52,487 nt of DNA from Alphaproteobacteria bacterium (GCA_013288305.1 JABDCD010000004.1:1-52487), one strand, 5' to 3'; numbered from the stretch's first letter, positions 2,414 through 31,795 are shown. Translations and numbers: made by a program. The notes: generated from the letters alone by a model not told the origin.

Positions 2414-2420
2414 ACGCTGC

Positions 2421-3530: not shown

Positions 3531-3553
3531 TGAAACTCCCTGGAACCCTGCGC

Positions 3554-5386
3554 TTACTGTCTATTAGAACTGATAAAAGTTAACCTTTGCTGAATTTTTT
3601 GAATATTTCCGGGGATAACTTCGCCGCGTTTATAAGCTTCCACGATCTGCCGGTACAGCTTGGCCGCTTCTTCATATTTTTTCTGTTTATCCAGCATGAT
3701 AGCAAGGTTGTAGCGGTAGGTCAGGTTTTCCGGTGCCAGCTCGACGGCGCGGAACATTTTTTCGCTGGCTTTGTCGGAATTACCAAGTTTTTCATAGATA
3801 ACTGCCATTTGCGCCGGGATGGGACTGAACTGCGGGTTGCGCCCTTCCAATTGCTCCAGCTGCGCCAGCGCTTCCTCTGGCGCCTCGTCAGCCAGCAATA
3901 CGAGGAAATTATTGAGCCCGTCGCGGTTATTGGGGTCGATGGCGAGCAACTTGGCATAGAGAGGCCGCGCCATATCGATCTGTCCGGCGCGGTGATAGGC
4001 AGTGGCCAGCCCGAACAGCGCGCTTTTATTCTTCGGATCGTTGCTCAATATATTTTTGTAAAGGTCGATGGCCTCGGAAGTGTGACCGGTGCTCATGGCG
4101 TTATAGGCCTGTTCGAGCTGGTAGTTCGAATCGACCTTGGGCGTCTTGGACTCGACACTGATGTTCATGCCGTCATGCTTGACCGATTTTACTGCCGGTT
4201 CGGCGTTACCCAGGTCGTTCTTATCCTTGGCATGATCGATGGCGATCTTTTTGAGCTTTTCTTTTTTATGATCGAGGTTGGTGGGGATTTTAGCGGCGAT
4301 CGCCTTGCTTTCCGGAGAGAGAGAAGGCGCCGGCTCCTGCATAACGGGAACAGGAGTATCCTGGTGGGGCGGCTCATTTTTCACGGCGGCGGCGACCTCG
4401 GGCGGTACGGCGGCTGGCGGCAATGGTGCCGGTTCGGAGGGCTTGCCTGCTGATTGCAGCAACGTATCGATGGAGGCATCCGGCGGCGGCGCGGCAGTGG
4501 GTGGTGGCGGCGGGGCTGCTGCTACCGGTGGTAGCGGCTGCGGCGCGGTTTCGAGCAACGGCTTGACGTCCGATAGCGGCGCCGCGGGCGCGGCAGGCGG
4601 GACACTTTCAGCGGTGGGAGGAGGCGCGGGCGGCACGGCTGGAGGAGGAGCGGGTGGTATGGCCGGAGGCGGTGGGGGTGGCGCTTCCGCGGGAATCTGG
4701 ATCAGGGGTGCATCCTCGCCGGCGGCGGGTGCCAGTGCCGCCAACTGCACCGGCGTCAGGGAAGGAATGATCGACGGCGGCGCGGCCTGCGCCATTTCCG
4801 GTTGTTCAGTCGCCATGTGCAGCGTTTCTTTTTTGACGATGACCGGCGGCGATTGATACACATTGGTGGAAGCGACCGGTATTCTGGCGGGCGGTGCGGC
4901 GGGAACCTGCTGTTTTTCCGACGGGGAGAATTTGGCGAATAGCTGGTCGAATACGTTGTCCGAGGGCGCGGCGGCGGCCAATGCCAGCGGCGCCGGGTTA
5001 TCCGGCAGCGGCGTATAGAGCGGGCGGCCATTGCCGGAGCCGCTTCTGGCGATCAGGGTGGCGGCGGGGTGCCGCGCCTGGCTGATGTTGCTTATATTGG
5101 GGATGGTGACTTTCAGCGGCTGGCGGGAGATTTTTTTCTCCGGAAGCGGCAGCGCCACGATATCCAGCGCGGAATCTTCATCGGCATCGGCGTGTGAGGA
5201 AATCCGTTCTATTTTTTGCTCGCGCACCTTGAGGCGGCGTTGCTCGTAGGGATTCATCGTTGAGGAAACATCCGCGTCGTAAGGCGCGGCTGCGGCCGCT
5301 GCGGAAGCATAGAGAGCATAAAACACCAGCCCGCCCCACAAGGCATTCCGTAAGCATCGGAGTTTCGATAAGCAGGCGGACGTCAT
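3554..5386 (-). CDS. Signal/TM-anchored proline/alanine-rich protein with C-terminal TPR repeats
   Basis: 610 aa. It has an N-terminal hydrophobic segment (LWGGLVFYALYASAAAAAAP) and a long PPPPP/APPP low-complexity centre. C-terminal TPR-like repeats include AIDLYKNILSNDPKN and ARPLYAKLLAIDPNN. Its stop is 24 nt upstream of the pilT start. Confidence 0.7.
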   Translation of the reverse strand: MTSACLSKLRCLRNALWGGLVFYALYASAAAAAAPYDADVSSTMNPYEQRRLKVREQKIERISSHADADEDSALDIVALPLPEKKISRQPLKVTIPNISNISQARHPAATLIARSGSGNGRPLYTPLPDNPAPLALAAAAPSDNVFDQLFAKFSPSEKQQVPAAPPARIPVASTNVYQSPPVIVKKETLHMATEQPEMAQAAPPSIIPSLTPVQLAALAPAAGEDAPLIQIPAEAPPPPPPAIPPAPPPAVPPAPPPTAESVPPAAPAAPLSDVKPLLETAPQPLPPVAAAPPPPPTAAPPPDASIDTLLQSAGKPSEPAPLPPAAVPPEVAAAVKNEPPHQDTPVPVMQEPAPSLSPESKAIAAKIPTNLDHKKEKLKKIAIDHAKDKNDLGNAEPAVKSVKHDGMNISVESKTPKVDSNYQLEQAYNAMSTGHTSEAIDLYKNILSNDPKNKSALFGLATAYHRAGQIDMARPLYAKLLAIDPNNRDGLNNFLVLLADEAPEEALAQLEQLEGRNPQFSPIPAQMAVIYEKLGNSDKASEKMFRAVELAPENLTYRYNLAIMLDKQKKYEEAAKLYRQIVEAYKRGEVIPGNIQKIQQRLTFISSNRQ

Positions 5387-15989: not shown

Positions 15990-16005
15990 AGCAAGAAACG
16001 TGCCT
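15990..16005 (-). promoter_or_regulatory. Sigma54 (-24/-12) promoter upstream of fliD-fliS
   Basis: The minus strand reads AGGCACGTTTCTTGCT (GGCACG-N4-TTGCT). It overlaps the flaG stop codon and lies ~85 nt upstream of the fliD ATG across an AT-rich leader. Confidence 0.7.
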
Positions 16006-16366
16006 ACGCCTGTATTTTAAGCAGGGGCGCGCTGCCGGATGCCCCGCTCAATTTGAACAGCGCAGGCTCCGGGACGTAAGTGACCTTGCCGTCGCGCAAG
16101 CTCGTATACCGGGTGATATATTGGCCGGTGGCGTCCTTGAAAATAGTGAATTTCTGGTCGCTGACGACGTATACGTTAGCGACGCTCTGGGCCATTTGCT
16201 GTACGGCTTGATAGTGTGCCTGCTCCATCGCCTGGGCATCGGGATCTGCCTGAACGGGCGCCGGAGTGGGTGAAGGAATAATCGGCATGCTTTGACCGGC
16301 AGGCACAGAAATCGCCTGTACCGGTGTCGATATAACAATGGGTGGCGTGATTCCAATGGGATCCAT
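16004..16366 (-). CDS. flaG: Flagellar protein FlaG
   Basis: 120 aa. The C-terminal FTIFKDATGQYITRYTSLRDGKVTYVPEP matches the FlaG-family core. Lies immediately downstream of flagellin. Confidence 0.75.
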   Translation of the reverse strand: MDPIGITPPIVISTPVQAISVPAGQSMPIIPSPTPAPVQADPDAQAMEQAHYQAVQQMAQSVANVYVVSDQKFTIFKDATGQYITRYTSLRDGKVTYVPEPALFKLSGASGSAPLLKIQA

Positions 16367-16385
16367 GGTATCCTCCTTACGGGGT

Positions 16386-16415
16386 TACCCGGGATGGATT
16401 GCTCCATCCCGGGTA
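16386..16415 (-). terminator. Perfect 12-bp-stem hairpin between fliC and flaG (terminator/attenuator or protein-binding palindrome)
   Basis: TACCCGGGATGG-attgct-CCATCCCGGGTA has no mismatches. It starts 16 nt after the fliC stop. No U-tract follows on the sense (minus) strand, so intrinsic-terminator function is uncertain. Confidence 0.45.
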
Positions 16416-16430
16416 GTGGTCCGTACAGTC

Positions 16431-18140
16431 TTAAGCGATCAGCTTCAGCAAGGCTTGTACTTGCGTGTTAGCTTGCGCCAGCACCGAGATACCGGCTTGC
16501 AGCTTAACCTGGTTGGTCGCAAACGCCGCGGATTCGGTCGCGATATTGACATCCAACAGCTGGCTGCGCGCGGCATCCTGGTTCTGAACGCTGTTCTGCA
16601 ATGCCGAGATGGCGAAGCCGACCTGCGATTCCAGGGCACCGATGCCGGAGCGCGTGGCCGTCGCGGTGTTGATGGCCGTGCTGACCGCCGTTGCCGACGT
16701 CGCCGCCGTGCCCGCCGTTTTGACGTCGAGCGTGGCGCCGTTGAACAGGGCGCTGCTTTGCGTGTTGGCGATGTTGACGGTGACGTTGGCGTCTGACGTG
16801 CTTCCGAGCTGGAAGGTCAAACCACCCTGGTTGCCGCCGCTGCCGAAGGCAGTGTTCAGCGCGTTGACGAGGTTGGTAACGTTGGACGCCGTATCGATTC
16901 TGGCGCTGGTGCTGATAGCGCCAAGGGCTACCTGCAGCACTTCATTGCTGGAGGTGTTACCTTGTGCGTATAATTGCAACAGACCAGCGGCGCCGCCGTT
17001 GAACGTGGCGGTTTTAACCGTGGTATCGGTTCCGGCGACGGCTCCTGCGGTAGAATAGGTGGTGCCGTTAACGACGACGGAAAAGACCACGCCGCTGCCG
17101 ATGCCGGTGGCCGACCAGTCGGAAATCGACGGCAATTTCTGCGCCGTTCCGGTAGTGAATAGCTGCGACTGGATCGTGACATTGCTGCCGCTGAAGCTGT
17201 CGAGCAAGGTGCCGGCGGTCGAAGAAGCGGTAATGGCCGAACCGGCGATGTTATTGCCGGCACTGTCGGTCGCAAGCGTTGTTGCAACCGTATGGATGGC
17301 AAAGCCCTTTGCGCTGGCAAGAGAAGTCGTGAGCTGCGTCCCGAACTGGGTTGCAGTCACGCCGGCAGCAAGAGCATTAACAGAAAATGTAATGGTGCTG
17401 GTGCCGTTATCGAGTGCCAGTGTAGTAGCATCCACCGCCAGGGTGCCGTTCCACACCGAGCCGTTGAGTGCAAGGGATACGGTATAGGCATGTTGGGTAT
17501 TGTCCGTGGTGCCGGTCGAGAGGAAGATGCCTTTGGACAAATCGCCCTGGAAAGCGGTGTCGTTTTGAGTGGCGCCGGACGCAACATCGAGCACGAAGCT
17601 CTTGAATTGACCCACGTTAGTCGTTGCGGTGAAACCGGTTACCGTAAGGGCGGCATTGGCGGTAACGGTGGCGATGCTGGCGGTGCGCAGCGGGTTGTTG
17701 GAGCCGCCGGTGGCGATCGAGCCGTCGATCAAATTCACGCCGTTGAACTGCGTGCCTTTGGCCAAAGAGTTGATTTCGCTTGTCAGCGCCTGGAATTCCT
17801 GGTCGAGGAAGCCGCGGTTAGTATCGGTCAACGAACCGGATTGCGCCTGGTTGGCGACGGATTCCATCGTCTGCAGGATGGACTGGATCTGCGCCACTGC
17901 GCCGTCGGCCACCTGGAGGAGGCTGTTGGCTGCCGAAGCGTTGGTTTGCGCCGTTTGCAACGTGCTTACCTGCGTCGCCAGCGAAGTACCTACAGCGAGC
18001 GCCGCCACGTTGTCAGAGGCCTGAATGATGGCGTTGCCGCTTGAGAGGCGGGCGACGTTGAGGGCTGCCGCTCTAGACGCTGTATCAATGTTACCTTGCG
18101 CGTAATAGGCAGCGATATTGGTGTTGATTGAATTTGACAT
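16431..18140 (-). CDS. fliC: Flagellin (569 aa)
   Basis: N-terminal INTNIAAYYAQGNI...LSSGNAIIQASDNVAALAVG...LQTMESVANQAQSGSLTDTNRGFLDQEFQALTSEINSLAKGTQFNGVNLIDG. C-terminal RSGIGALESQVGFAISALQNSVQNQDAARSQLLDVNIATESAAFATNQVKLQAGISVLAQAN. The central domain is S/T/A/G-rich. Confidence 0.95.
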   Translation of the reverse strand: MSNSINTNIAAYYAQGNIDTASRAAALNVARLSSGNAIIQASDNVAALAVGTSLATQVSTLQTAQTNASAANSLLQVADGAVAQIQSILQTMESVANQAQSGSLTDTNRGFLDQEFQALTSEINSLAKGTQFNGVNLIDGSIATGGSNNPLRTASIATVTANAALTVTGFTATTNVGQFKSFVLDVASGATQNDTAFQGDLSKGIFLSTGTTDNTQHAYTVSLALNGSVWNGTLAVDATTLALDNGTSTITFSVNALAAGVTATQFGTQLTTSLASAKGFAIHTVATTLATDSAGNNIAGSAITASSTAGTLLDSFSGSNVTIQSQLFTTGTAQKLPSISDWSATGIGSGVVFSVVVNGTTYSTAGAVAGTDTTVKTATFNGGAAGLLQLYAQGNTSSNEVLQVALGAISTSARIDTASNVTNLVNALNTAFGSGGNQGGLTFQLGSTSDANVTVNIANTQSSALFNGATLDVKTAGTAATSATAVSTAINTATATRSGIGALESQVGFAISALQNSVQNQDAARSQLLDVNIATESAAFATNQVKLQAGISVLAQANTQVQALLKLIA

Positions 18141-18302: not shown

Positions 18303-19481
18303 TTATATTTCAAGCAGCCCGCGCATCCGTTTTTCCTGCGTCCAGCCGGGTTCCGTATAAATTTGCATCGAAAAAGCCGGATCGCCCAGATGATCCATGA
18401 ACCGTGAGATGCTTTGCATGATGCGAACCGCCGCATCCTGCGGCAATGTTGCTCCATATATATTGTAACTGCACATCAGCGCAAGTTTTATGGTGGCTAG
18501 CCGCACGCCGATGACGGTGATGCGTTCCGAAAGTTTATCCCCCAGCCCGGCATAGGGGAAGAGCGCCAGCGCCAGTTGCATCTGCAGCCAGCGGCGCAAG
18601 TGCGGCGCATATTTCGCCGCAGCTTCCTTTTGCCACAGCGCTTTTACCTTCTGATAGGCGGCGGCGCTTTGGACGGTGGTGTTGATTCTTACCGTGTCCC
18701 AATCCAGCGTGGCCGCCAATGCTTTTTCCATATCACCGATGGTTTGTTTCAGGCGCGGCGATGGTCGTTTTTTCGAGGCGACGATCAATCCGCATAGCGC
18801 ATGTAACAGGTTGAACGGGTCGGCGGCATCGCTCTCGGGGGGCGGCAGGCGCCCGTCGGCATGGGTGAGATAAAACGGCGCAGCCTGCGGCCAGCCTTTG
18901 CGGTCGATGCGCTCAAAGGAACGGCTGACATTGGCGATGCGCAAAAAAATACGCTCGGCACTTGCTTGTTTGTCTTCCGTCGCTTTGAGAAATGCCTGGT
19001 GCACTGCCAGCGCATCCCCGGCTGCGGTGTCCTCCGGCAGATAATTTTTCAGCGAATGCGGCAGGCGTTCGGCTGCCGCTTCTTCCCATGCGCAGGCATT
19101 CTCATCGGCCAGGGCGAGCCGGACGATTTCGGGGCAGGACATGGCGGCGGTCATGACAACCTGGTTACCCAGCGCGCGCGTCACGCGCGGATAAAAATAA
19201 CAGGCGTCGCCGAGAAATTTTTCACCGTGTGTTTTATGGATGCCGCACAGGCCGCCTTCCAGCTTGACGCAAAAACTCGTCTGCGGATCTTTGCGCATGA
19301 TGTGCGATCCGTCCGGCTCGGCTTCGACCGCGCCCAGCAGTTCCGGTGCTTCTTTTTTATAGCGTGCCAGCGTCGGCTCGTCCATCTGCATCGACCAGCC
19401 TTGGCAGCAGGTATCTTCGCACTTGTCGCCGAGACAGGAAAATTTTGAAAGCAGTTGGGAACGCAGAATGGCTGTCATCAT
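18303..19481 (-). CDS. fliB: Flagellin lysine-N-methylase FliB-like (CxxCxxCC / YkgJ-type Cys cluster)
   Basis: The likely start is ATGATG at 19481, preceded by AAGGAGG. The N-terminal FSCLGDKCEDTCCQGWSMQMDEPTLARYKK matches the Salmonella FliB pattern F-C-G--C-D-CC-GW---D. The ORF extension to 19688 overlaps the upstream gene and is Arg/His-rich. Confidence 0.75.
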   Translation of the reverse strand: MMTAILRSQLLSKFSCLGDKCEDTCCQGWSMQMDEPTLARYKKEAPELLGAVEAEPDGSHIMRKDPQTSFCVKLEGGLCGIHKTHGEKFLGDACYFYPRVTRALGNQVVMTAAMSCPEIVRLALADENACAWEEAAAERLPHSLKNYLPEDTAAGDALAVHQAFLKATEDKQASAERIFLRIANVSRSFERIDRKGWPQAAPFYLTHADGRLPPPESDAADPFNLLHALCGLIVASKKRPSPRLKQTIGDMEKALAATLDWDTVRINTTVQSAAAYQKVKALWQKEAAAKYAPHLRRWLQMQLALALFPYAGLGDKLSERITVIGVRLATIKLALMCSYNIYGATLPQDAAVRIMQSISRFMDHLGDPAFSMQIYTEPGWTQEKRMRGLLEI

Positions 19482-21040
19482 AACCTCCTTGCAACGCGCA
19501 GCAACACCGGCAGCCAATCCATCAATGTTTCCTGGCGCTCTACAGTCACGCTGGTATACCAGCGGCTGTCGGTGCGCACCAGTCCCCAGCGCCAATCCGA
19601 GGCGGCGGAAAGCATGATGGTGGTTTTGACGCCGAGCGCGCCGGCCATGTGCACGGTGGTGTTCTGGATGGACACTACTTCGTCGCACGCTGCAATCTGC
19701 GCCGCCAGCCCGTCGATATTCTGGAAACCGTCGATGTCGGGGTCGGCATAAAGCGCGCCGGGGAAGGCGCGGTTCGCCGCTTCCATTTCTCCCGCCGGAG
19801 GGCTGTATTGCAGCGATATATACCGGACATGCGGCAGCGAAAAAAGCGGCGCCCAGTCCGAAAGCGGAATATTGCGCTGGCTGGAATTGTCATTGTTTTT
19901 GGAATGCCAGGAAATGCCCACCAGCTTTTTGCGTTGACCCTGAGATAACGCCAGATATTTTTCCCGTAGCGTTCGCACGCGCGGGCTATCGGCTTTAAGA
20001 TAAGGCGGATGCTGCGACGGCGTATAGTGCGGCAGTGCCAGGCGCATGAGCTGGCTCATGGCCAGCTGGAAATCGCATTTGTTCGTATAGCGGTCGAATA
20101 ATTGCTGCGCGAGCTGAGGCGTTTCGGGTGTATGAGGAACGACGGAGACGTTGGGAAATGAGCGGGCGAACAGCGGAATCAGCTTGGGATAAAGTGCGAG
20201 CGTCACCTGCGCGCCTTGCGCAAACAGCCAGGGAAGTAGGCCGGCGAACATGAAAGCATCGCCGATGCCTTCGTTGCACCATAGCAGCAGATGCTTGCCC
20301 GCGAGCGGCTGACCGCTCCATTCGGGGATGGAAGTGTTGCACATGCATTGGTAAAAGACGCGGTCGCGCACGGCGGCGTAATCCTCGAAACCGTCCTTGC
20401 CATCGCTTAAGAGGAGTTTGATCTGGCCGGTCAGCATGCGCGCCTGGATATCTCCCGGTTTCAGTTCCAGCACTTTTGCCCAGCAGGCCAGAGCCTGTTC
20501 GTTTTCTCCCTTTACGCCGTGCATGCTGGCGCGCACGCGGTAGGGCCCCGGCGAGTCGGGATAGGCTTTCAGCGCCTCTTCGCATATTTCGATGCAGCGC
20601 TCATACTGGCCGTTATAGCTCAGCATCGCAGCGTATTCGGTGTAAAAATCGGCACCCTTCACGCCATGATGATAGATCGCCTCCAGATGTTTCATCCGCT
20701 CGGCGCGCTCATCCACCTTCCGGCATAGCTGTATGGCTACCGAGTGCAGGGCGATAATATCGGGATAGAGGGCGATGAGGCGGTTGATGGCGCTGCCGCT
20801 GATGTCCTTAGGCCTGGTTCCCGCTGTGCACAGATCGCTCAGCATGTCGATCGCTTCGCTATGGTTGGGATCCAAGGCCAGCAGCCGCGCCAGTACGTTC
20901 ATCGCCTGTTCGGTGTTGCTTAAGCGGAGGTGAGCTTGCGCCAGCGGCAGCAGCGAACGCGGATTCTGCGGTTCGGCCAGCGCCAGCTGCTCCAGCCGTT
21001 TCGCCACGGCTTCCCATCCTTCGGCTAATTGCCCTTTCAT
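19478..21040 (-). CDS. TPR-repeat + GT9-like (GT-B) glycosyltransferase, FlmG-like architecture (paralog 1)
   Basis: 520 aa. The N-terminal half has TPR repeats (LPLAQAHLRLSNTEQAMNVLARLLALDPNHSEA). The C-terminal half is heptosyltransferase-like (LLLWCNEGIGDAFMFAGLLPWL; LVGISWHS; DEVVSIQNTTVHMAGALGVKTTIML). The ATGA overlap with fliB suggests translational coupling. Confidence 0.7.
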   Translation of the reverse strand: MKGQLAEGWEAVAKRLEQLALAEPQNPRSLLPLAQAHLRLSNTEQAMNVLARLLALDPNHSEAIDMLSDLCTAGTRPKDISGSAINRLIALYPDIIALHSVAIQLCRKVDERAERMKHLEAIYHHGVKGADFYTEYAAMLSYNGQYERCIEICEEALKAYPDSPGPYRVRASMHGVKGENEQALACWAKVLELKPGDIQARMLTGQIKLLLSDGKDGFEDYAAVRDRVFYQCMCNTSIPEWSGQPLAGKHLLLWCNEGIGDAFMFAGLLPWLFAQGAQVTLALYPKLIPLFARSFPNVSVVPHTPETPQLAQQLFDRYTNKCDFQLAMSQLMRLALPHYTPSQHPPYLKADSPRVRTLREKYLALSQGQRKKLVGISWHSKNNDNSSQRNIPLSDWAPLFSLPHVRYISLQYSPPAGEMEAANRAFPGALYADPDIDGFQNIDGLAAQIAACDEVVSIQNTTVHMAGALGVKTTIMLSAASDWRWGLVRTDSRWYTSVTVERQETLMDWLPVLLRVARRL

Positions 21041-22752
21041 GATGTCAGCCTTTCGCGCACGCGCTGCAATACCGGCTGCCAGTCGAGGAGTTTTTCCTGC
21101 CGCTCGATATGCACGCTTTCATACCAGCGGCTGTCGCTGCGTTTCAATCCCCAGCGCCAATCGGAGGCGGCGCACAGCATCAGCGTCGTTTTTACGCCGA
21201 GCGCGCCGGCCAGATGCACCGTGGAATTCTGGACAGAGATTATTTCATCCATAGCTGCCATCTGCGCTGCCAACCCGTCGATATTCTCGAACGCGTCGAT
21301 ATCGGGATCGACATGGAGCATGTTGGGGAAAGTGCGGCCTACGGCCTCTATCTCAGCGGCATGATCGCCATATTGCAGCGAAACATATTGGATGTCCGGC
21401 AGCAAAAAAAGCGGCGACCATTCCGCCAGCGGAATATTGCGCATCCCGGCGGTGTCGTAGTTGATGGTATGCCAGGAAATGCCCACCAGTTTTTTGATTT
21501 TCCCCGGCGGGCGTAATGCCAGGTATTTTTCGCGCAGGCTTTGCGTCTTTGCCGCATCGACCTTGAGGAAAGGCGGATGCTGCGCCGGCGTGTAATGCGT
21601 CACGCCGTAGGCCATGAGCTGGCCGAAGACGGCCTGCAGGTCGCATTTGGATGCATAGACCTGCAGATTATTTTTGCTGTAGGGAATGATGCCTACGCCG
21701 GGAAAAGATCGCGCAAAAAGCGGAATCATCTTGGGATAAAGCGCGAGTGTAATCTGCGCGCCCTGCGCCATGACCCAGGGCAGGAGGCTGGCGAACATGA
21801 CGACGTCGCCGATGCCCTGGCTCGACCATAGCAGCAGGCGCTTATCTTTAAGCGACTCGCCATGCCATTCCGGTAGCGGAATGACCAATGCTTCCTTGAC
21901 CATGGCGTAATCGCGGTGCGCGGCATATTCCTCGTAGCCCTCGCGGCAATCGCTGGTGAGCAGTTTGATGATGCCGATCGCCACGTGCGACGCATGATCC
22001 TCCGGCGTCATTTTCCCCGCATCGCCCGGCAATTGCGCAACGACGCGCGCCCACTCCGCCAGCGCTTCGTCGTAGCGCCCGAGATTGGTATAGACATTGG
22101 CGCGCATCTTGAGCACGCCCAGCGAGCCGGGATAGGCGGCCAGCGCATCTTTGCACACGGTCAGGCAGCGGTCGAACCGGGCGTTCTGGCTTAAGCACAG
22201 GGTATAGGCGCAGTAGAATGATTCGGTGCGAACGCCCAGAGCATATAGCGCATCCAGATGCACCAGGCGTTCGGCATAATCGCCCACGGTTTGCGCCAGC
22301 CGCGCCGCGACGGAACGCACGCCGATATTCTTCGGATAGTCTTTTGCCAACCGTTTCATGCTGGCATTTTCCGCCAGGCAGAGATCATGCAGCAGGTTCG
22401 AGGCCTCGGCACGATCGGAATCGAGAGCAAGCAATTTGGCCAATACCGCCGTGGCTTTTTCCGGCTGTTTAGCTTGAGCGTAAGCCTGCGCCAGCGGCAG
22501 CATGTGACGACTCTGGCGGGGATTGGCGGCAAGCGCTTTTTGGAAATAGTCCGCGGCAGCTTCCCATCGCTGTGCTTGCAGATGAATCGTTCCCAGCGCG
22601 TGTAAAATATCGGGCTGGCCGGGATAATCCGCCAGCAGCGCTTCGTAGGCGCTTTGCGCGTCGGCGTTTTTCCCATCCACATGCAGCCGCATCGCCGCCA
22701 CCAGGCGCTGTTTCAAATGGTCGCCGGAGGCTAGGGAAGAGCCGCTCATCAT
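21037..22752 (-). CDS. TPR-repeat + GT9-like (GT-B) glycosyltransferase, FlmG-like architecture (paralog 2)
   Basis: 571 aa with the same architecture. The C-terminal domain is highly similar to the 19478..21040 product (LLLWSSQGIGDVVMFASLLPWV; LVGISWHT; DEIISVQNSTVHLAGALGVKTTLML), while the N-terminal TPR part is more divergent. ATGA overlaps at both ends. Confidence 0.7.
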   Translation of the reverse strand: MMSGSSLASGDHLKQRLVAAMRLHVDGKNADAQSAYEALLADYPGQPDILHALGTIHLQAQRWEAAADYFQKALAANPRQSRHMLPLAQAYAQAKQPEKATAVLAKLLALDSDRAEASNLLHDLCLAENASMKRLAKDYPKNIGVRSVAARLAQTVGDYAERLVHLDALYALGVRTESFYCAYTLCLSQNARFDRCLTVCKDALAAYPGSLGVLKMRANVYTNLGRYDEALAEWARVVAQLPGDAGKMTPEDHASHVAIGIIKLLTSDCREGYEEYAAHRDYAMVKEALVIPLPEWHGESLKDKRLLLWSSQGIGDVVMFASLLPWVMAQGAQITLALYPKMIPLFARSFPGVGIIPYSKNNLQVYASKCDLQAVFGQLMAYGVTHYTPAQHPPFLKVDAAKTQSLREKYLALRPPGKIKKLVGISWHTINYDTAGMRNIPLAEWSPLFLLPDIQYVSLQYGDHAAEIEAVGRTFPNMLHVDPDIDAFENIDGLAAQMAAMDEIISVQNSTVHLAGALGVKTTLMLCAASDWRWGLKRSDSRWYESVHIERQEKLLDWQPVLQRVRERLTS

Positions 22753-23456
22753 TGCCGCTTATCCGCGTAGATCATGGCGTAATATTCCTTGAACCATTTG
22801 TCGGCGTAGTCGCATTCCTCGTAGCCTTTGAAATAGGGGCCGCCCAGCGTGTAATGCAAATTGGCGATCTGCGACAGCGGCACCGGGTCGTATTCGCTGA
22901 CCAGGAAGTTCCAACGGATGGAGAGTTCGCCGATTTCCGCCTCGTTCTTCAGCCACTGGAAGCGGTGCAGCTCCAGGCCGGAAGCGGTATTGACGTAGTC
23001 CGGCGTAAGCCGCGTGCACTTGGCGCAGTTCATCAGCATGACGCTCGACCAGTTCTTTTTTTCGTAACTGGTTTGCTTCTGGCCGAGGAATTTCGCATCC
23101 GTTTTGGGCGTGTAATTATGCTTGGCCACCATCACGGCATAACGGTCGTCGCGTAAGCTCCATAATTTGGCGATGTCGTCCAGCACCAGCATGTCGCAAT
23201 CCATGAAGATCGCCCACCCTTCGTAATTGCACAGATACGGCGTGAGGAAACGGGTGAAGGCGAATTCGGTGGATTGCAGCGAGTTGCGCTCGCGGGTGAA
23301 GATTTTGGACAGCTGTGGCAGCGCCAGCGGCGTGATGGCGGTGGGCAGCGAGGAACGCGAGAGGATGCTATGCGTCAGCACGTGGTAGGCGACGGTTTCG
23401 CGCTGGTCGAAGCCGATGAAGACGCGGATGCTGTCGGCTTTGTCGGTGTTTTGCAT
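22749..23456 (-). CDS. GT-A fold glycosyltransferase, family 8-like (DxD)
   Basis: 235 aa. The sequence VFIGFDQRETVAYHVLTHSI...TEFAFTRFLTPYLCNYEGWAIFMDCDMLVLDDIAKLW contains a DxD motif (DCD) in a nucleotide-diphospho-sugar-transferase-like context. Confidence 0.6.
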   Translation of the reverse strand: MQNTDKADSIRVFIGFDQRETVAYHVLTHSILSRSSLPTAITPLALPQLSKIFTRERNSLQSTEFAFTRFLTPYLCNYEGWAIFMDCDMLVLDDIAKLWSLRDDRYAVMVAKHNYTPKTDAKFLGQKQTSYEKKNWSSVMLMNCAKCTRLTPDYVNTASGLELHRFQWLKNEAEIGELSIRWNFLVSEYDPVPLSQIANLHYTLGGPYFKGYEECDYADKWFKEYYAMIYADKRQ

Positions 23457-23475
23457 AGGATCCTTTTTTTTGCGG

Positions 23476-24732
23476 TTACAGGGTTGCGGCGATGGGTTGT
23501 TTTTCGGCGCCTGCGGAGGCGCAGAATTTATAGATAAAGTATTCGTACACTCCGTTCAATACCTCCTGGCTGACATGGCGGGAGGCGGCGTCTTCCTTCC
23601 CGAACACGGCGCTGCCGATGTTGGGCGCGATCCAGCGGACGATTTCGAAGGACGGGAAATAGAATAGCTTATCATCGGCTTGATGTTTTTCCAGGAACTC
23701 GTTCAGCGCCGCGCGCAACAGCGACTTGCTGACGCAATCGATTTCCACGGCGCTTAAGTTAGCCGAATGTTTGATGCCGATGGCGCTGTCGATGGGTACC
23801 GGCGACAGTGTGAGCAGCAAACGGGCGGTGGGGTTGATGGTGCGGATGGCCTTGTACAGGGCGTCGAGAGCTTCGCTGACTTCGGCGTAGCTGCCGATGC
23901 GGAATTCGGCGCCTGCCGTTTTCAGCTTGCCGGTCAGGTGCGAGCGCAAAGCGATGTCCTCGTTGGTGGAGATGGTCAGGAATTTAGGCGCGATCGCCGG
24001 ACCGACTTCGAATTCCGCTGGTGTTGGCGGCAGGAAATAATCGAGCACGTTGCCGTAAGTGACGATCAGAAATTCGCTGGCCTTCAGCGCCGCCAGCAAG
24101 GCCTCCAGCCGTTGCAGCTCCATTTTCACCACGGCGGCCAGATCGACGCCGGCGTCTTTGGGATATAAAACGTCTACCCAATGTTCGATATAGGCGCGCT
24201 GCAGCCGCGGCGCGGCGGTGCACACGGCCAGCAGCTTGGCGTTGGAAAAGGGGGAATTCAGATCCTCGGCCTGGATGAACGGCGATATAGTGAAGCCGCG
24301 GTGCTGCAGGTAATTGGCGATGTTGCGGGCGAAGCAGGAGCCCATGGTGAAGATGCGGGTGGCGGGGTCGATAAAATCGAAACGCCGCGATCCGAAGGCG
24401 GCGTCGAGAAAGGCAACGGTGGTGGAAAATTCATCGCTGCAATGCGGGTAGACTTCGACCAGCCGGTCGTTGCGCTTTTTGCGTTTGTGAACCAGCGTTT
24501 CTTCGATTTGCCGCGTTTCGCTTGCGCTCAGGCCGGGGTTGACGGCGGAGACGGGCAGGCACCATTTCATTTTCTGCCAGTCGCCTTCGAGCTTGAGATC
24601 GGCGATGAACTGGCAAAACTTGTTCACCAGCTCGCCGCGGGCCGCAGCGCTCGAATCTTTTGCCAGCAGGTCGAAGAAATTCCTGTAGATAAATCTTGAC
24701 AAGTCCCGGCTTTTATCCGCATAAAATTCCAT
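23476..24732 (-). CDS. GSCFA-family (SGNH/GDSL-like) protein with ~130-aa N-terminal extension
   Basis: 418 aa. Contains the eponymous motif IFTMGSCFARNIA and a C-terminal EDAASRHV (D..H-like block). It is a paralog of the N-terminal two-thirds of 25493..27472. Confidence 0.75.
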   Translation of the reverse strand: MEFYADKSRDLSRFIYRNFFDLLAKDSSAAARGELVNKFCQFIADLKLEGDWQKMKWCLPVSAVNPGLSASETRQIEETLVHKRKKRNDRLVEVYPHCSDEFSTTVAFLDAAFGSRRFDFIDPATRIFTMGSCFARNIANYLQHRGFTISPFIQAEDLNSPFSNAKLLAVCTAAPRLQRAYIEHWVDVLYPKDAGVDLAAVVKMELQRLEALLAALKASEFLIVTYGNVLDYFLPPTPAEFEVGPAIAPKFLTISTNEDIALRSHLTGKLKTAGAEFRIGSYAEVSEALDALYKAIRTINPTARLLLTLSPVPIDSAIGIKHSANLSAVEIDCVSKSLLRAALNEFLEKHQADDKLFYFPSFEIVRWIAPNIGSAVFGKEDAASRHVSQEVLNGVYEYFIYKFCASAGAEKQPIAATL

Positions 24733-24766
24733 GGTTTTACCTTGAAAACATTGGCGTTAGATCCTC

Positions 24767-25486
24767 ATGCACTCGAACCCTGAGCTGGAACTGACGTATA
24801 AAATCGCCAATGTCCCGGTGTCCTATTTTCCTTTTCCGCATTTTTATATCCGGGATATTTTCCCGGCGGATTTTTACCGCGACTTGATCGCCAACCTTCC
24901 CGATCATTCCGCGATGCTGCCGATCGGCGAGGTGCGTCCGGTCAAGGGGTATAAGGAGCGTTTCGTGCTGCAGATGAGCCCGCAGTATCTTGCAGCGCTG
25001 CCCGAAGCGAAAAGAAAATTCTGGGAGGAATGCGCGCAGTGGATGATGACTGGAAAACTCACCAATTATCTGCTCAATAAATTTTCCGCCCACATCAATG
25101 AGCGCTTCAAAAACGTTCAGAGCCCCATATTTTATAATGAGTGTATGCTTATCGAGGATATCACCAATTATTCCATAGGGCCGCATAGCGATTCTCCGAA
25201 AAAAGTCATTTCCGTTCTTTTTTACCTGCCGAAAGATGATTCCCAGGCCAACCTCGGCACGTCCATTTATGTTCCCAAGGAGGCGAGCTTTACCTGTCCG
25301 GGCGGACCTCACTACGGGTTCGAGAATTTCAGCAAAGTCCATACCATGCCCTTCCTTCCCAATTCGGTATTCGTATTCCTGAAAACGGCCAATTCCTTTC
25401 ATGGCGTGGAACCGGTGACTACGCCGGATCGCAGCCGATGGGTCTTTCTTTTCGACATTTACGTTAAACAACCTCCCGTTTCATAA
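24767..25486 (+). CDS. 2OG-Fe(II) oxygenase superfamily protein (prolyl-hydroxylase-like)
   Basis: 239 aa. It has an HxD...H facial-triad-like arrangement: YSIGPHSDSPKKVISVLFYLPKD ... NSFHGVEP. The composition is more coding-like than the antisense ORF. It is the only plus-strand gene inside the island and looks visibly more AT-rich than its neighbours. Confidence 0.6.
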   Translation: MHSNPELELTYKIANVPVSYFPFPHFYIRDIFPADFYRDLIANLPDHSAMLPIGEVRPVKGYKERFVLQMSPQYLAALPEAKRKFWEECAQWMMTGKLTNYLLNKFSAHINERFKNVQSPIFYNECMLIEDITNYSIGPHSDSPKKVISVLFYLPKDDSQANLGTSIYVPKEASFTCPGGPHYGFENFSKVHTMPFLPNSVFVFLKTANSFHGVEPVTTPDRSRWVFLFDIYVKQPPVS

Positions 25487-25492
25487 GCCTCG

Positions 25493-27472
25493 TCAGCGGC
25501 GGAAAATGCGCTCGATAACGCTTTCTTTCCTGATGACGGCGCCGTCGTCGCCCAGCGCTACTTCCGTGACGACAAACTGATACTGTACTTGCGGGAAACC
25601 AGAGGCGATGCGTTCGATCGTTGTTTTCCACCAGGCGGGCGGCTGTATGGTGCAATGCGCATTTTCGCCGTTGGGAAGAATTCTTTTCGCGGCATAGCAG
25701 GCGATGTTGGCGAAGACAAAATGTCTGGCATAGGAAAATAGTTCGGCCAGAATCCACGGCAAGTCTTCTTCTGGGCAATGCTCCAGCACGTCGGTGCAGA
25801 TGACGCCGTCGAACTTTCCCTGCGGCAGCTCCGTATAGGGCGGGTAGGCCGGATCGTAGAGCGTGATCTCCTTCACGCCCCAGAAGGCCTTGATCGATGG
25901 ATACTCTGCATTTCCTGCCGTAATTGAAGCAACTTGATATAATTTTCCTTTGCCGCAGCCGTAATCGAGCAGGGTTTGGGCTTTGGTGCGTTTGGCCAAC
26001 ATACCGATGCGCGGCGCCTGATGCGGCAGGCTGATACCGGCGAACATTTCCTCCGGCTTGGTGTCGGTGGTGCCATGCAGGTGCAAATGCTGATACTGCT
26101 CCAGCAATTGGCGGTAGCGTTCGCTTGGCTGCTGGCGGCTGTATTCTGTTTTTACGGCTGTATGTTCCATGACACTCTCCTGATCGGGCGCTGCGCCGCG
26201 GCCGAATTTATGAATAAAGTATTCGTATACGCCGGTGAGCACATGCTCGCTGACATGCCGGGAAGAAGCGTCTTCCTTTCCCAGCACGGCGGCATCCATG
26301 CACGGTCCCACCCAGCGCACGATTTCAAACGAAGGGAAATAAAAAAGTTTTCTATCCGATTTTTTTCGCTCCATCACATCGTCGAGCGCGGCCTTCAGGA
26401 GCGATTTGCTGAGACAATCGATTTCGATGGCGCCCAGCTTTCTGGCGTGAACGATACCCAGCGCGTTGCCGATGGGAACGGGAGAAAGCGTGAGCAATAT
26501 GGGGGCGTGCGGATTGATGTTTCTGATCGCCGCATATAAAGCATCCAGGGCTGCCACGGCTTCCGGGTAGGTGCCGAGGCGGAATTCGGAGCCGGCTTCT
26601 TTCAGCTTGTGCGTCAGGTGCGAGCGCAGGTCGATGTCTTCATCATGGGATATGGATAGGAACTTCGGCGCTACGGGCGGGCCGATTTCATATCCGGCAG
26701 ACGCCGCGGCGGCGGTCATGAAATAATCCAGGACGTTGCCGCAGGTGATAATTAAAAATTCGGCGGATTTCAGGGATTCGGCCAGCTTTTCGAGCCGATG
26801 CAGCTCGTTTTTTATGACCGCTTCAAAATCCACACCCTTATCCGCCGGGTAGAGAAACCTGACCCAATGTTCGACGTAGGCTGCCTTGAGCGGCGCCGGG
26901 GCGGCGCAGACGGCGAGCATTTTCGCATTGGAAAAAGGCGAGTTCAAATCCTCTGCCTGGTCGCAATGCCCGACGGCAAATCCTTTCTGGCGCAGATGCT
27001 CAGCGATATTGAGCGCAAAGCAGGAGCCGAGAGTGAATATGCGGCTGGTCTCATCAAACAGGCCGTATCGCTCCGACCCGAAAGCCGCATCGAGGAATTC
27101 AATCCGCGTGGAAAATTCGTCGCTGCAGTGAGGATAGACTTCGAGCAGCTTTTCATTGCGCCTTTTGCGCTTCTGCGCCAGGGCATTTTCCACTTTCCCG
27201 ATCTCGTCCCCGCTCAGGCCGGCACGGGCATAATCGGGCAGGAAAAATTTCATTTTCTGCCAGTCGCCTTCGAGTTTCAAATCGGCGAGGGACTTGCAAA
27301 ACTCGTCTATAAACCCCCTGCGCGCCGCATCGTTAGGGCAATCGGCGGCCGATTTGGAAAACTTCCTATAGGTGACCCTGGGCAGGTTTTTTCCCGTAAA
27401 AGAATGGAAATAACACTCCCTGAGGTTGGCGCGGCTATAGTCGTCATAGGCAATGGCGGGGTCGGTGGTCAT
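25493..27472 (-). CDS. Fusion protein: GSCFA-family domain + C-terminal class I SAM-dependent methyltransferase
   Basis: 659 aa. Residues 1-~425 parallel the 23476..24732 product (IFTLGSCFALNIA; EDASSRHV). Residues ~445-659 carry MTase motif I LLDYGCGKGK and FDGVICTDVLEHCPEEDL. The start codon lies 3 nt after the fliW stop. Confidence 0.75.
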   Translation of the reverse strand: MTTDPAIAYDDYSRANLRECYFHSFTGKNLPRVTYRKFSKSAADCPNDAARRGFIDEFCKSLADLKLEGDWQKMKFFLPDYARAGLSGDEIGKVENALAQKRKRRNEKLLEVYPHCSDEFSTRIEFLDAAFGSERYGLFDETSRIFTLGSCFALNIAEHLRQKGFAVGHCDQAEDLNSPFSNAKMLAVCAAPAPLKAAYVEHWVRFLYPADKGVDFEAVIKNELHRLEKLAESLKSAEFLIITCGNVLDYFMTAAAASAGYEIGPPVAPKFLSISHDEDIDLRSHLTHKLKEAGSEFRLGTYPEAVAALDALYAAIRNINPHAPILLTLSPVPIGNALGIVHARKLGAIEIDCLSKSLLKAALDDVMERKKSDRKLFYFPSFEIVRWVGPCMDAAVLGKEDASSRHVSEHVLTGVYEYFIHKFGRGAAPDQESVMEHTAVKTEYSRQQPSERYRQLLEQYQHLHLHGTTDTKPEEMFAGISLPHQAPRIGMLAKRTKAQTLLDYGCGKGKLYQVASITAGNAEYPSIKAFWGVKEITLYDPAYPPYTELPQGKFDGVICTDVLEHCPEEDLPWILAELFSYARHFVFANIACYAAKRILPNGENAHCTIQPPAWWKTTIERIASGFPQVQYQFVVTEVALGDDGAVIRKESVIERIFRR

Positions 27473-27474
27473 GG

Positions 27475-27903
27475 CTACAGCATGTGCTGGACTTTATAAT
27501 GATCCTGCTGAAACACATACTGCACGCCGGTTTTGCGATCAGCATCGATCAGGAGCGGCGCGCGCGCGTTGACCGACAGCTTGACCTGCTCCAGGCCGCG
27601 ATGCACCGATACGATCAGCAGCAGCGCCAGGTTCGGCGGGTCGATCTGCAGGTCGCGGCAGGCGGCACCCAGGTCGGCTTCGGCGATGATGGCGTTACGC
27701 GTTTCCAGCGGCAGGGTGATGAACGACAGGGCGATGTCGTCGAGCGATTGCAGCAGGGTGAATTGCTGCATTTTCGGGCTGGGGAATTTGGTCAGCACGA
27801 AACGGAATTTGTCCGGCATCCCGAGCAGGCCGCGCGGGAACACGATCGCCTTGTCCGTATCCACGGTAATCTCGCCGAAACGCGATGCGATGGTTTCCAT
27901 CAT
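27475..27903 (-). CDS. fliW: Flagellar assembly factor FliW
   Basis: The likely start is MMETIASRFGEITVD (ATG at 27903). FPRGLLGMPDKFRFVL...FTLLQSLDD..LSFITLP...NARAPLLIDADRKTGVQYVF..DHY matches the FliW family pattern. Confidence 0.85.
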   Translation of the reverse strand: MMETIASRFGEITVDTDKAIVFPRGLLGMPDKFRFVLTKFPSPKMQQFTLLQSLDDIALSFITLPLETRNAIIAEADLGAACRDLQIDPPNLALLLIVSVHRGLEQVKLSVNARAPLLIDADRKTGVQYVFQQDHYKVQHML

Positions 27904-27983
27904 GACGGTACCAGAAGCTATAAACCCGGTTGAATTTGCCGATTGGTGTAGCATATGTACCGCCTTTTGTGAATAGAGGCTAG

Positions 27984-29065: not shown

Positions 29066-31795
29066 TTACGCAATCGATTGCAGCAGGGCGTCGAACAAGG
29101 TGCTGGTCACCGAGATCACGCGCGCCGAAGCGGTATAAGCATTCTGGTAAATGACCGTGTTGGCCAGTTCGGTATCGAGATTGACGCCGCTGATGGTGGA
29201 AGCTTGCTTCGTAAAGCCGTCGAGCAATGTCTGCGCATTGGTTTGGGTGGTGGTAGCCGTGGCGGCGTTGCTCGAGGCCGATCCGATGATGGCGCCGGCA
29301 TAGCCGCCGAAGCTCTGGGTGGTGGCGCCCAGGCCGCCGGCGATGGGAAAATTGACCGAGGCGGTGCCCAGCGAAGCCAATTGCTGAATGACGCTGTTGT
29401 CCCCGGGATTGCGCACATAGGTATAATTGGGCAAGGCCGTGGGGTCGGCGGGCTGAGCACCCTGCGTCAGGGTGCCGAGCGAAATCAGGCCGGGATTGTC
29501 CCGCAGGCGCTGTTCGACCTGCAGGTTGGCGGCGCTGCCGGCCACCGCATCGCCGGTGGTGGTCAGGCTGTTGCTCTTAAAAAAATTATTGAGGTTGAAA
29601 TATTGCGAAAATCCCTGGTTGCTGCCGGCTATCGGCGGATCATTGGCCGGTTGTCCCTGCTGGGAGCTGTTTAAGCTGTCGATAGCGATGAGATTGCTGC
29701 TGTTACCGGCTTTGATCTTAAGAAAACCGTTCTGCGTCGTGATGTAGTTGCCATTGCTGTCTTTGGGCAATTCGTTGCCATTGGCATCGACCAGCAGCGC
29801 CTGGGCGAGAGGCTGGTGGGTGGTGGGTTTGACGATAACGCCGTCGCCGTTGGCCGTCTGCGGCGCGTAATAGGTATTAAGCAGATTCGACTGGTTGTTG
29901 GTGATCTGGTAGGTGATCTGCGAGGTTTTGACCGGGCCTTTCCCGTCATCGACGGCGACGTCCAGCGTGACGGTGTAATAATCCGCGCTGGAATTGCTGC
30001 CGAGCGCAACGTTGAAGAGGCCGCTGTTCACCGTGCGGCCGTTCTGGCCGGCGGGCATGGCGGCGTAGGGCGGCGTGACCGTTGCCGTGCCGACGGGAGG
30101 GACGGTGCCGCTGCTCGATGCCTGGCCGGCGGCGGTGATGGTGAAGCTGTTGGCGCCGACGTTCGAGATAACGAACGTGCCGGTCAGGGCGGATTCCGCA
30201 ATGCCGTCGACCGACGTGCCGGGGTCAGAGAGATATACGGTCTCGCCGTTGGTCAGGCCGGCGGTGCTGCCGGTGGTATGGACGGTCACCGTCCCGCTGT
30301 CCATCGTGGTTTGATAGTTGCTGATGGCGATGGTGGGGGCAGGCAATGTTACCGTCGTGGTATTGGCTCCGCCGCTGGGCTGTACCGTCACGCCGCTGAC
30401 ATAGAGGTTGGCTGTGCTGGCCGAAATGTTATCGAGACCCAGATCGAAATTGAATTGCGCCGACGATCCGGGGAGACTGCTGCTGTCGGACACGACCTGG
30501 ATATTGTTGAGGTTGCCGACTTCCACTTTATTCTGCGGCGGGCCGTAATACTGGTTGATGGCGTCGATAATGTCCTGCGTCGACACGTTGCCCTCGCCGT
30601 GGCCGGAATTGAGCGTCGAAAGGTCGAGATTGAGCGGCGCCTTGCCGTTGGTTTCGTCAGCATAGGGCGACGTGGCGGCCTGGCCGGTTGAATTCAGCAC
30701 GGCGATGTGCACACTGCCGTTCCATTGACTCAAGGTCTGCGCGCCCACGGCGCGTTCGCCGGTGAGGCTGCCCGCGCCGGGGAAGCCGCTGCCGGAATTC
30801 TCGACGATGTTGACCTGATCGCGCAGGTTTGCTGCCAGCGTATCGAGCTGGGTCAGGAGACCCGGTATCTGCTGATCGCGCATGGACAGCAATCCGGCGA
30901 TTTTCCCGGACGTCAGCGTGCTGGTGATCTGCGCTGGCGTGCCGCCGGAAGCCAGCTGCACCGGCGTACCGATCCGGTTGCCCGCCTCGTCGGTGCGGTA
31001 GACCAGCAACGACGACAGCGATCCATTGTTGGCGAAGACGCCGACCGATGATGCCGCAGTATAGCTCAACTGGTAGGTGGTGGCACTGTCGAGCAAGCTG
31101 GTGCCGTTGCCGGTGGTGATGCTGATCGCGCCGTCGCTCTGGGTAGTGGTCTGGATATTGATATATTGCGCCAGGTTGTTCAGCAGAGTGTCGCGCTGGT
31201 CGCTCAGGCCGCCCACGGATTGGCCGAGCAGCGTGGCGTCGCTGATGTTATGGTTGACCTCCGCCAGGTTGGTAAGGTCGCTATTGACGTTGTCGATGGC
31301 GCTTTTAATGTCGCCGTCGGCCTGAAATTGCAGGCTCTGAAGTCCCTGCGCCGTTTGTTGTATCTGCCCGGCCAGCGTGACGCCGCTATTGACAGCAGCC
31401 TGTTGCAGCGCCGTGTTCTGCGGCGTCTGCGCCAGCGACTGCATGTTATTGAAAAAATCGCTGACGAAGGTATCAAGGCTGTTGTTATTGCCCGGCTGGC
31501 CGAGCAATAGCTGGATGCGGTTGTGGTAATCGCTAAGGACGCTTGCCTGCCCGACCGTCGAGTTCTGCTGCCGCACGGCGCCGACCAGGTTCTGGTTGAC
31601 CTGGCGGGTGACGTCCGTCACGCTGACGCCGGCGCCTTCCCCGCTGAGATAGACGGCCTGCTGATTGCCGATTTCACGGCTGTAGCCCTGGGTATTGGCA
31701 TTGGCGATATTCTGCGACACCACCGCCAGCTGCTGCTGGTTGATGTTGAGGCCGGAAAGCGCCGTAGTCAGAGCTGTTGAAAGGCCGGCTACCAT
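29066..31795 (-). CDS. flgK: Flagellar hook-associated protein 1 FlgK (unusually long, 909 aa)
   Basis: N-terminal ALSGLNINQQQLAVVSQNIANANTQGYSRE and C-terminal GVNLDTELANTVIYQNAYTASARVISVTSTLFDALLQ are canonical FlgK termini. There is a very large central insert. Confidence 0.9.
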   Translation of the reverse strand: MVAGLSTALTTALSGLNINQQQLAVVSQNIANANTQGYSREIGNQQAVYLSGEGAGVSVTDVTRQVNQNLVGAVRQQNSTVGQASVLSDYHNRIQLLLGQPGNNNSLDTFVSDFFNNMQSLAQTPQNTALQQAAVNSGVTLAGQIQQTAQGLQSLQFQADGDIKSAIDNVNSDLTNLAEVNHNISDATLLGQSVGGLSDQRDTLLNNLAQYINIQTTTQSDGAISITTGNGTSLLDSATTYQLSYTAASSVGVFANNGSLSSLLVYRTDEAGNRIGTPVQLASGGTPAQITSTLTSGKIAGLLSMRDQQIPGLLTQLDTLAANLRDQVNIVENSGSGFPGAGSLTGERAVGAQTLSQWNGSVHIAVLNSTGQAATSPYADETNGKAPLNLDLSTLNSGHGEGNVSTQDIIDAINQYYGPPQNKVEVGNLNNIQVVSDSSSLPGSSAQFNFDLGLDNISASTANLYVSGVTVQPSGGANTTTVTLPAPTIAISNYQTTMDSGTVTVHTTGSTAGLTNGETVYLSDPGTSVDGIAESALTGTFVISNVGANSFTITAAGQASSSGTVPPVGTATVTPPYAAMPAGQNGRTVNSGLFNVALGSNSSADYYTVTLDVAVDDGKGPVKTSQITYQITNNQSNLLNTYYAPQTANGDGVIVKPTTHQPLAQALLVDANGNELPKDSNGNYITTQNGFLKIKAGNSSNLIAIDSLNSSQQGQPANDPPIAGSNQGFSQYFNLNNFFKSNSLTTTGDAVAGSAANLQVEQRLRDNPGLISLGTLTQGAQPADPTALPNYTYVRNPGDNSVIQQLASLGTASVNFPIAGGLGATTQSFGGYAGAIIGSASSNAATATTTQTNAQTLLDGFTKQASTISGVNLDTELANTVIYQNAYTASARVISVTSTLFDALLQSIA

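Follow-up and report, generated by a model that had tools for sequence, protein, structure and literature searches.

Flagellin modification is already known from several systems, among them the glycosylation islands beside flagellin genes (PMC4875605), the lysine methylase FliB (PMC8598068) and the TPR glycosyltransferase FlmG (PMC7591256). The islands lie between flgL and fliC in Pseudomonas aeruginosa and P. syringae and between fliC and fliA in enterobacteria, where these flagellin glycosylation islands (FGIs) hold TPR GT-B enzymes fused to a methyltransferase (annotated GT41 and AdoMet_MTase), and sugar-biosynthesis genes are a usual part of them (PMC4875605). Here we describe a cluster of seven genes at positions 18303-27472 of a 52,487-nt stretch of alphaproteobacterial DNA (GCA_013288305.1, JABDCD010000004.1:1-52487; this whole stretch is called the window below), which lies between fliW and the flagellin gene fliC. 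It encodes FliB, two TPR proteins with a GT9-like GT-B half, a GT8-like glycosyltransferase, a GSCFA-family protein, a 2-oxoglutarate (2OG)-Fe(II) oxygenase, and a fusion of GSCFA to an S-adenosylmethionine (SAM) methyltransferase. What sets it apart from the described systems is that no donor pathway accompanies it, that its GT-B enzymes resemble GT9 and TibC, that FliB is combined with glycosyltransferases, and that GT8-like, GSCFA and 2OG oxygenase proteins occur in no described flagellin system that we found.

The cluster resembles the glycosylation islands in placing non-structural glycosyltransferase and tailoring genes beside a flagellin gene within a late flagellar cluster, with three glycosyltransferase-like genes in the 5.3 kb upstream of fliC; genes for methyl and acyl tailoring are frequent members of those islands. 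In contrast to them, the window holds no sugar-biosynthesis genes, its composition is not deviant, and the GT-B half is closest to GT9/TibC as opposed to the annotated GT41 or GT2, while the GT8-like enzyme, the two GSCFA proteins and the 2OG oxygenase have no reported counterparts there. As well, FliB and glycosyltransferases are nearly mutually exclusive in Enterobacteriaceae, with both present in two strains (PMC4875605), whereas here they stand together. FlmG of Caulobacter and Brevundimonas, which are also Alphaproteobacteria, shares with the two TPR proteins a soluble two-part build, TPR in the N-terminal half and GT-B in the C-terminal half, an architecture for which the earlier note on this DNA had rightly cited it; the likeness is one of architecture. 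The TPR half of FlmG binds flagellins (PMC7591256), and the enzyme transfers pseudaminic or legionaminic acid, for which it needs a dedicated pathway (PMC7591256; bioRxiv 10.1101/2022.03.25.485807); no such pathway is encoded in the window, which instead has two tandem paralogues of the TPR enzyme.

The FliB encoded here is like that of Salmonella enterica (PMC8598068) and of the methylation islands (PMC4875605) in its equivalog-level match, its CX4CX3CC motif and its position next to fliC, and unlike the Salmonella protein in its alphaproteobacterial host, in its coupling to glycosyltransferase genes and in facing a flagellin with only 9 Lys. The TibC/AAH heptosyltransferases (4rap, 4rb4), which O-glycosylate Ser of a secreted protein in the cytoplasm with the housekeeping donor ADP-heptose, have a GT9-like GT-B fold as the cluster enzymes do, but TibC is a dodecamer with an iron finger and no TPR, and shows ~13% identity and a TM-score of ~0.5 to the cluster protein. 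The streptococcal serine-rich-repeat adhesins follow a similar principle, in which an exported protein rich in Ser/Thr is O-glycosylated in the cytoplasm, first by a GT-B enzyme and then by extension of the GT8 type; that system differs from the cluster in initiator family, substrate and export route, and has no oxygenase or GSCFA protein.

Judged by its sequence, the fliB product is a bona fide member of the FliB family, encoded beside fliC. It matches the NCBIfam equivalog NF038110 with 132.5 bits (cut-off 85) over profile positions 5-365 of 373, and its N-terminus (residues ~16-27) reads CLGDKCEDTCC, the CX4CX3CC pattern that binds a [4Fe-4S] cluster in Salmonella FliB (PMC8598068). The earlier call of a fliB-like methylase therefore holds by equivalog and cysteine motif, though not by PF03692, which none of the cluster proteins matched in Pfam at E<0.01. 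The neighbouring fliC product contains 25% Ser+Thr overall and 28% in its central residues 146-480, in agreement with the Ser/Thr-rich central domain described before.

The two TPR proteins are paralogues with 51% identity over their full length. TPR repeats occupy residues 10-210 of copy 1 and are matched in copy 2 as well, while the C-terminal halves (~300 residues) of both gave no Pfam match; PF01075, the GT9 family, was matched by neither at E<0.01 and is carried only by distant homologues (P0149, P0158-P0160). An AlphaFold2 (AF2) model of residues 218-520 of copy 1, built from 58 homologues, reached a predicted local distance difference test (pLDDT) value of 93.7, and its best Foldseek matches in the PDB were a Veillonella GT9 (3tov), WaaF (1psw), WaaC (2h1h) and TibC (4rap), with E 7e-8 to 1e-6, probability 1.0 and query TM-scores (TMq) of 0.5-0.62. 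Thus the designation GT9-like GT-B, which the model supports for the C-terminal half, rests on fold and not on profile; of the TPR + GT9-like architecture proposed before, the TPR part and the fold stood and the GT9 Pfam assignment did not. None of the homologue hits is labelled FlmG, their labels including 'FlbA-like' and 'ADP-heptose:LPS heptosyltransferase' (LPS, lipopolysaccharide). Sequence and profile searches of the PDB with the TPR, GT8-like, oxygenase and GSCFA proteins returned TPR matches only, or nothing.

The GT8-like protein carries a DxD motif (DCD, 86-88) whose D86 and D88 are invariant in five homologues, and an H201 that is likewise invariant among homologues; no PDB relative was found for it by sequence or profile, while metagenomes hold at least 430 relatives at ~60% identity. 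Both GSCFA proteins match PF08885 well above its cut-off of 25 bits (92 bits for the stand-alone protein, 89 for the fusion), are 59% identical to each other, and share a conserved N-terminal extension of 125 residues that occurs in only ~40 database proteins. In the stand-alone protein the GSCFA motif lies at 131-135, and of the candidate catalytic residues S132, D381 and H386 do not vary among 26 homologues, while N228 is present in at least 90%. A class I SAM methyltransferase (PF13489, 29.9 bits against 27; motif I, DYGCGKG, at 503) makes up the C-terminal third of the fusion, so that both the GSCFA assignment and the fusion reported earlier are upheld. No member of the GSCFA family has been characterized (PMC9487903, PMC12828459), and we found no paper linking GSCFA with flagellin.

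The oxygenase has PF13640 as its sole Pfam match, at 23.4 bits and so under the cut-off of 27, but its AF2 model (pLDDT 87.5) matches 2OG oxygenases at probability 1.0, and both histidines of the HxD...H triad (H140, H212) are invariant, with D142 kept in at least 90% of sequences. Given this fold and the conserved H140/D142/H212, the earlier call of a 2OG oxygenase stands despite the sub-cut-off Pfam score. In the PDB the model comes closest to PasI and PolD, whose substrates are octosyl-acid nucleoside phosphates, and next to the protein prolyl hydroxylases Tpa1, OGFOD1, PHD2 and P4H (Pseudomonas); the family has at least 1476 detected members.

The enzymes other than FliB are tied to one another well beyond this locus. 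In an exhaustive HMMER search of 1.84 billion proteins, none of the 150 top-ranking representatives matched both halves of the GSCFA-methyltransferase fusion, and looking for the exact protein among public assemblies gave no record. Among these matches, though, the methyltransferase domain recurs at 42-57% identity in other fusions, namely with a GT8-like domain (P0314, P0330) and with one, two or three TPR-GT9 units (P0304, P0348, P0340, P0325, P0345). Forty-three metagenome loci sampled around GT8-like genes, each with at least 6 kb of flank, had a TPR-GT9 gene in 18 cases, a methyltransferase in seven and an oxygenase in three, and at one locus (L050) up to six TPR-GT9 genes follow in a row. 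The pairing of GSCFA with the oxygenase is conserved in several orientations across at least nine lineages (L001, L002, L008, L010-L015, L115, L116), and the long-type GSCFA adjoins the oxygenase in Mesorhizobium, Pseudorhodoplanes, Phenylobacterium, Xanthobacteraceae and several metagenome lineages; other oxygenase homologues pair with an FkbM-type methyltransferase. These domain fusions and conserved neighbourhoods tie methyltransferase, GT8, TPR-GT9, GSCFA and oxygenase into one pathway, and by this evidence the non-FliB genes are one functionally linked, widespread enzyme set. The window is the sole place we found that holds the whole set together.

Some of the homologous proteins and loci have further features. 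The fusion proteins P0325, P0345, P0340, P0346, P0351 and P0358 are 1581-2357 aa long, with two to three TPR-GT9 units and the methyltransferase domain at the end, and TPR-sulfotransferase fusions stand beside TPR-GT9 genes in L046 and L084 (L084:3696-5624). In L111-L114 (8001-8789 and the preceding gene), genes of oxygenase homologues with 54-57% identity share 17 nt with the FkbM-family methyltransferase gene upstream of them, an arrangement that occurs in two unrelated contexts. Metagenome-assembled genomes (MAGs) of Hyphomicrobiales and Pseudorhodoplanes have the GSCFA-2OG pair between ddl and murB, within the cell-division and cell-wall (dcw) cluster (L011:9935-12036, L012:9516-11740).

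We think it somewhat probable that the cluster is a resident cytoplasmic one that decorates flagellin, by methylation and O-glycosylation, before export. In its favour, FliB is specific to flagellin and its gene is translationally coupled to the TPR-GT9 genes, and the cluster is bordered by fliW on one side and fliC on the other. Membrane segments and signal peptides were predicted in none of the seven products, all of which are expected to be soluble, and this fits modification of flagellin in the cytoplasm ahead of type III export. From the gene content, folds, motifs and linkage of the set, together with these soluble products, we infer a substrate, a donor and an order of steps. FliB, whose family membership is clear, would methylate surface lysines of FliC, while the paired TPR-GT9-like enzymes would dock on flagellin via their TPR halves, as FlmG does, and attach the first sugar to Ser/Thr of the central domain. 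Since no donor pathway is encoded nearby, we propose a housekeeping nucleotide sugar as donor; the fold points to the ADP-heptose type, with a CMP-ulosonic acid or a UDP-hexose as alternatives. The absence of nucleotide-sugar genes noted earlier holds for the whole 52-kb window, genes of pse/leg/neu type included, although the rest of the genome could still encode such genes. The GT8-like enzyme may then add a hexose, and the glycan could be tailored by O-methylation (methyltransferase domain), by hydroxylation or oxidation (2OG oxygenase) and by the addition or removal of O-acyl groups (the two SGNH-type GSCFA proteins).

Linkage of these families to flagellar genes recurs elsewhere, if sparsely. 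Around the Mesorhizobium set, the order is flhA / 2OG, GSCFA / sulfotransferase ... flgL, flgK, flgE, and a marine contig (L098) carries flgK, flgL, flagellin, sulfotransferase, flbT, flaF and GT8. In two further loci (L085:12086-13442, L086:10419-10850), a module of 2OG, methyltransferase, GT8, TPR-GT9 and TylF-methyltransferase genes contains type IVa pilin genes (PF00114, GFTLIE motif), which suggests that pilin may be the target in that lineage. A number of observations weigh against flagellin as the target, and we gather them here. When all stop-to-stop frames of 110 related loci were scanned for flagellin, FlgL, FliW and FliB, flagellin-family genes lay near the set only in L008 (Mesorhizobium; also L010) and L098; counting the window, there are three independent cases near flagellin among ~120 related loci, most of which are housekeeping or polysaccharide contexts. 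The closest GT8/TPR-GT9 pairs (L028, L029, L031; GT8 81-83% identical) stand among housekeeping genes, the TPR-GT9 homologues of a Ralstonia megaplasmid and a Burkholderia plasmid have no flagellin within 10 kb, and TPR-GT9 homologues are present in MAGs of Moraxellaceae, a generally non-flagellated family. The GT8 assignment leans on a marginal and partial Pfam match (PF01501, cut-off 24.3, matched with 25.2 bits over just profile positions 76-169 of 253), and the oxygenase gene, on the opposite strand, breaks a simple single-operon reading. FliB apart, no family in the cluster is flagellum-specific by its distribution, and their recurrence in glycan and housekeeping contexts marks them as generic glycoconjugate-building tools, so that action on flagellin is inferred from position and from FliB and not from family membership.

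This genericity is the strength of an account, possible if on the unlikely side, in which FliB alone acts on flagellin and the other six genes form a general glycoconjugate module for LPS or capsule sugars or for other cytoplasmic or secreted proteins. The predominance of non-flagellar loci speaks for it, as do the GSCFA-2OG-methyltransferase sets of L001 and L115, amid ABC exporters, GT2 enzymes and genes resembling kinases of 3-deoxy-D-manno-octulosonate (Kdo), the Sinorhizobium meliloti pSymB GT8 homologue amid kpsF, CMP-Kdo synthetase and polysaccharide genes, the TPR-GT9 gene of Azospirillum p6 (L119) beside nucleotide-sugar dehydrogenase, sulfotransferase and ABC transporter genes, and the GSCFA-2OG pair that sits even in the dcw cluster. 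Such a module would, however, have to do here without exporter, flippase, polymerase or priming transferase, none of which is encoded in the window, and with soluble products throughout; the genes are moreover packed with overlaps between fliW and fliB/fliC and resemble flagellar genes in G+C content at third codon positions (GC3), the fusions to TPR units fit protein-directed targeting, and two independent flagellar and two pilin linkages are found elsewhere. The earlier note had taken an LPS or capsule assignment of the genes, with no recurrent linkage to flagellin, as the outcome that would tell against it. The first half of this is seen, because some members lie in glycan clusters, and the linkage to flagellin is weakly recurrent: Mesorhizobium and L098 show the co-occurrence that was looked for, the rest of the ~120 loci do not, and the flagellin-modification interpretation is overall partly supported.

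In another account, which we regard as very improbable, the oxygenase would hydroxylate a Lys, Pro, Asp or Asn of flagellin and the new hydroxyl would then receive a sugar through GT8, a methyl group through the methyltransferase or an acyl group through GSCFA, much as in the cytoplasmic hydroxyproline glycosylation of Skp1 or the hydroxylysine glycosylation of collagen. The Skp1 pathway brings together a PF13640-type hydroxylase and a GT8-family enzyme, PF13640 is the only Pfam match of our oxygenase, prolyl hydroxylases follow PasI and PolD among its structural neighbours, and it is always accompanied by an enzyme that could derivatize a hydroxyl, be it GSCFA, an FkbM-type methyltransferase (L111-L114, L001) or the methyltransferase-GT8 set. 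Yet the best structural matches, PasI and PolD, work on sugar-nucleoside phosphates and not on proteins, the oxygenase-GSCFA-methyltransferase trio also occurs in polysaccharide-type clusters, and the two GT9-like enzymes are left with no specific role. A broader idea, clearly doubtful at present, would make the cluster one case of a widespread cytoplasmic protein-glycosylation system, (TPR-GT9)n + methyltransferase + GT8 ± 2OG ± GSCFA, directed by TPR to exported filament subunits (flagellin in the window, the marine contig and Mesorhizobium; type IV pilin in L085/L086) and using housekeeping donors, for example ADP-heptose or CMP-Kdo, to make a glycan that is methylated, oxidised and acylated. 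If true, this would provide a first substrate for GSCFA, an SGNH family without a known activity, and for the oxygenase family.

Glycosylation and methylation of flagellin influence filament assembly and motility as well as phage adsorption and immune recognition. The known systems mostly rely on dedicated nonulosonic-acid or deoxy-sugar pathways, and under the favoured reading of flagellin decoration this would be a variant that brings no donor pathway along. Above all, the cluster gives tractable access to the GSCFA family and to an orphan enzyme set that is widespread, since the whole set lies beside an obvious and easily purified candidate substrate, which makes the function of GSCFA, not known to date (PMC9487903), directly testable.

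Two further observations concern the homologous loci. A GT8-like gene with 58% identity on pSymB (L117, CP140934.1 1164993-1165682), with a GT39 gene and further glycosyltransferase genes nearby, is conserved in 63 Sinorhizobium records and represents a genetically tractable homologue. Sulfotransferase genes adjoin the flagellin-family genes of Mesorhizobium (L008:11424-12173) and of the marine contig (L098:8203-9015), and, with the TPR-sulfotransferase fusions mentioned above, this is a hint that these systems may also make sulfated modifications.

The window represents a late-flagellar region of alphaproteobacterial type, in which FliX adjoins flgI. The minus-strand order is flgI, rod-binding protein, flgN, flgK, flgL, fliW, the seven-gene cluster and fliC, after which come a 120-aa open reading frame (ORF), fliD, fliS, fliK, flgD and flgE (Table 1).

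Table 1. The seven clustered genes and their two neighbours, with the evidence for each assignment
Feature	Position	Strand	Evidence
fliC, flagellin, 569 aa, presumed substrate	16431-18140	-	Flagellin_N + Flagellin_C matches
fliB, flagellin lysine-N-methylase, 392 aa	18303-19481	-	NF038110 equivalog + CX4CX3CC motif
TPR + GT9-like GT-B, copy 1, 520 aa	19478-21040	-	TPR matches + structure model
TPR + GT9-like GT-B, copy 2, 571 aa	21037-22752	-	TPR matches; 51% identity to copy 1
GT8-like glycosyltransferase, 235 aa	22749-23456	-	PF01501 (partial, marginal) + DxD motif
GSCFA-family (SGNH clan) protein, 418 aa	23476-24732	-	PF08885
2OG-Fe(II) oxygenase, 239 aa	24767-25486	+	Model fold + iron triad; PF13640 sub-cut-off
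GSCFA + class I SAM methyltransferase fusion, 659 aa	25493-27472	-	PF08885 + PF13489
fliW, upstream neighbour	27475-27954	-	PF02623, 57 bits

The arrangement first reported for this locus is real, with the ORFs where they had been placed, although eight genes were then announced and seven are found, as in the note's own list. The three ATGA overlaps, at 19478-19481, 21037-21040 and 22749-22752, are present as described, so that the gene of TPR copy 1 has one at either end, and a 19-nt gap completes the packing inside the cluster. The junction between fliW and the start codon of the GSCFA-methyltransferase gene is indeed tight, with a gap of 2 nt and not 3 nt, and fliB sits 162 nt upstream of fliC. 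All genes but the oxygenase are on the minus strand, which places the cluster transcriptionally upstream of fliC and downstream of fliW, and not downstream of the flagellin gene as had been stated. The oxygenase gene is convergent with the GSCFA-methyltransferase gene, 6 nt from its stop, and lies 34 nt from the divergent GSCFA start, which leaves two options, promoters inside coding sequence or a fliW-fliB transcript that crosses the oxygenase gene in antisense. Promoter and terminator scans gave counts not above those of shuffled controls, and Rfam and tRNA scans had no matches.

Nor is the cluster an island by composition, as its earlier description implied. Its GC3 of 0.60-0.81 is close to that of the flanking genes (0.69-0.82), G+C and GC3 resembling the flagellar and housekeeping flanks, and the oxygenase is the sole gene with lower values (GC 0.49, GC3 0.60); recent horizontal transfer is ruled out on these grounds. 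A self-contained surface-polysaccharide locus is likewise ruled out, by the lack of membrane proteins, exporter and priming transferase.

The axial proteins encoded in the window are unusually long (FlgE, 936 aa, 7892-10702; FliD, 707 aa, 13781-15904; FlgK, 909 aa, 29066-31795), and FlgK is also Ser/Thr-rich. A motif search of the window found no CsrA-like ORF, although fliW is present. The 120-aa ORF between fliC and fliD (16004-16366) occupies the usual position of flaG and has no Pfam match; a 119-aa ORF in another frame (16048-16407) overlaps it, and the call is uncertain. Finally, two PilT-like T2SSE ATPase genes lie at 1280-5386, followed in the same interval by a gene for a 610-aa protein whose first 410 residues match no Pfam family and whose C-terminal third consists of TPR.

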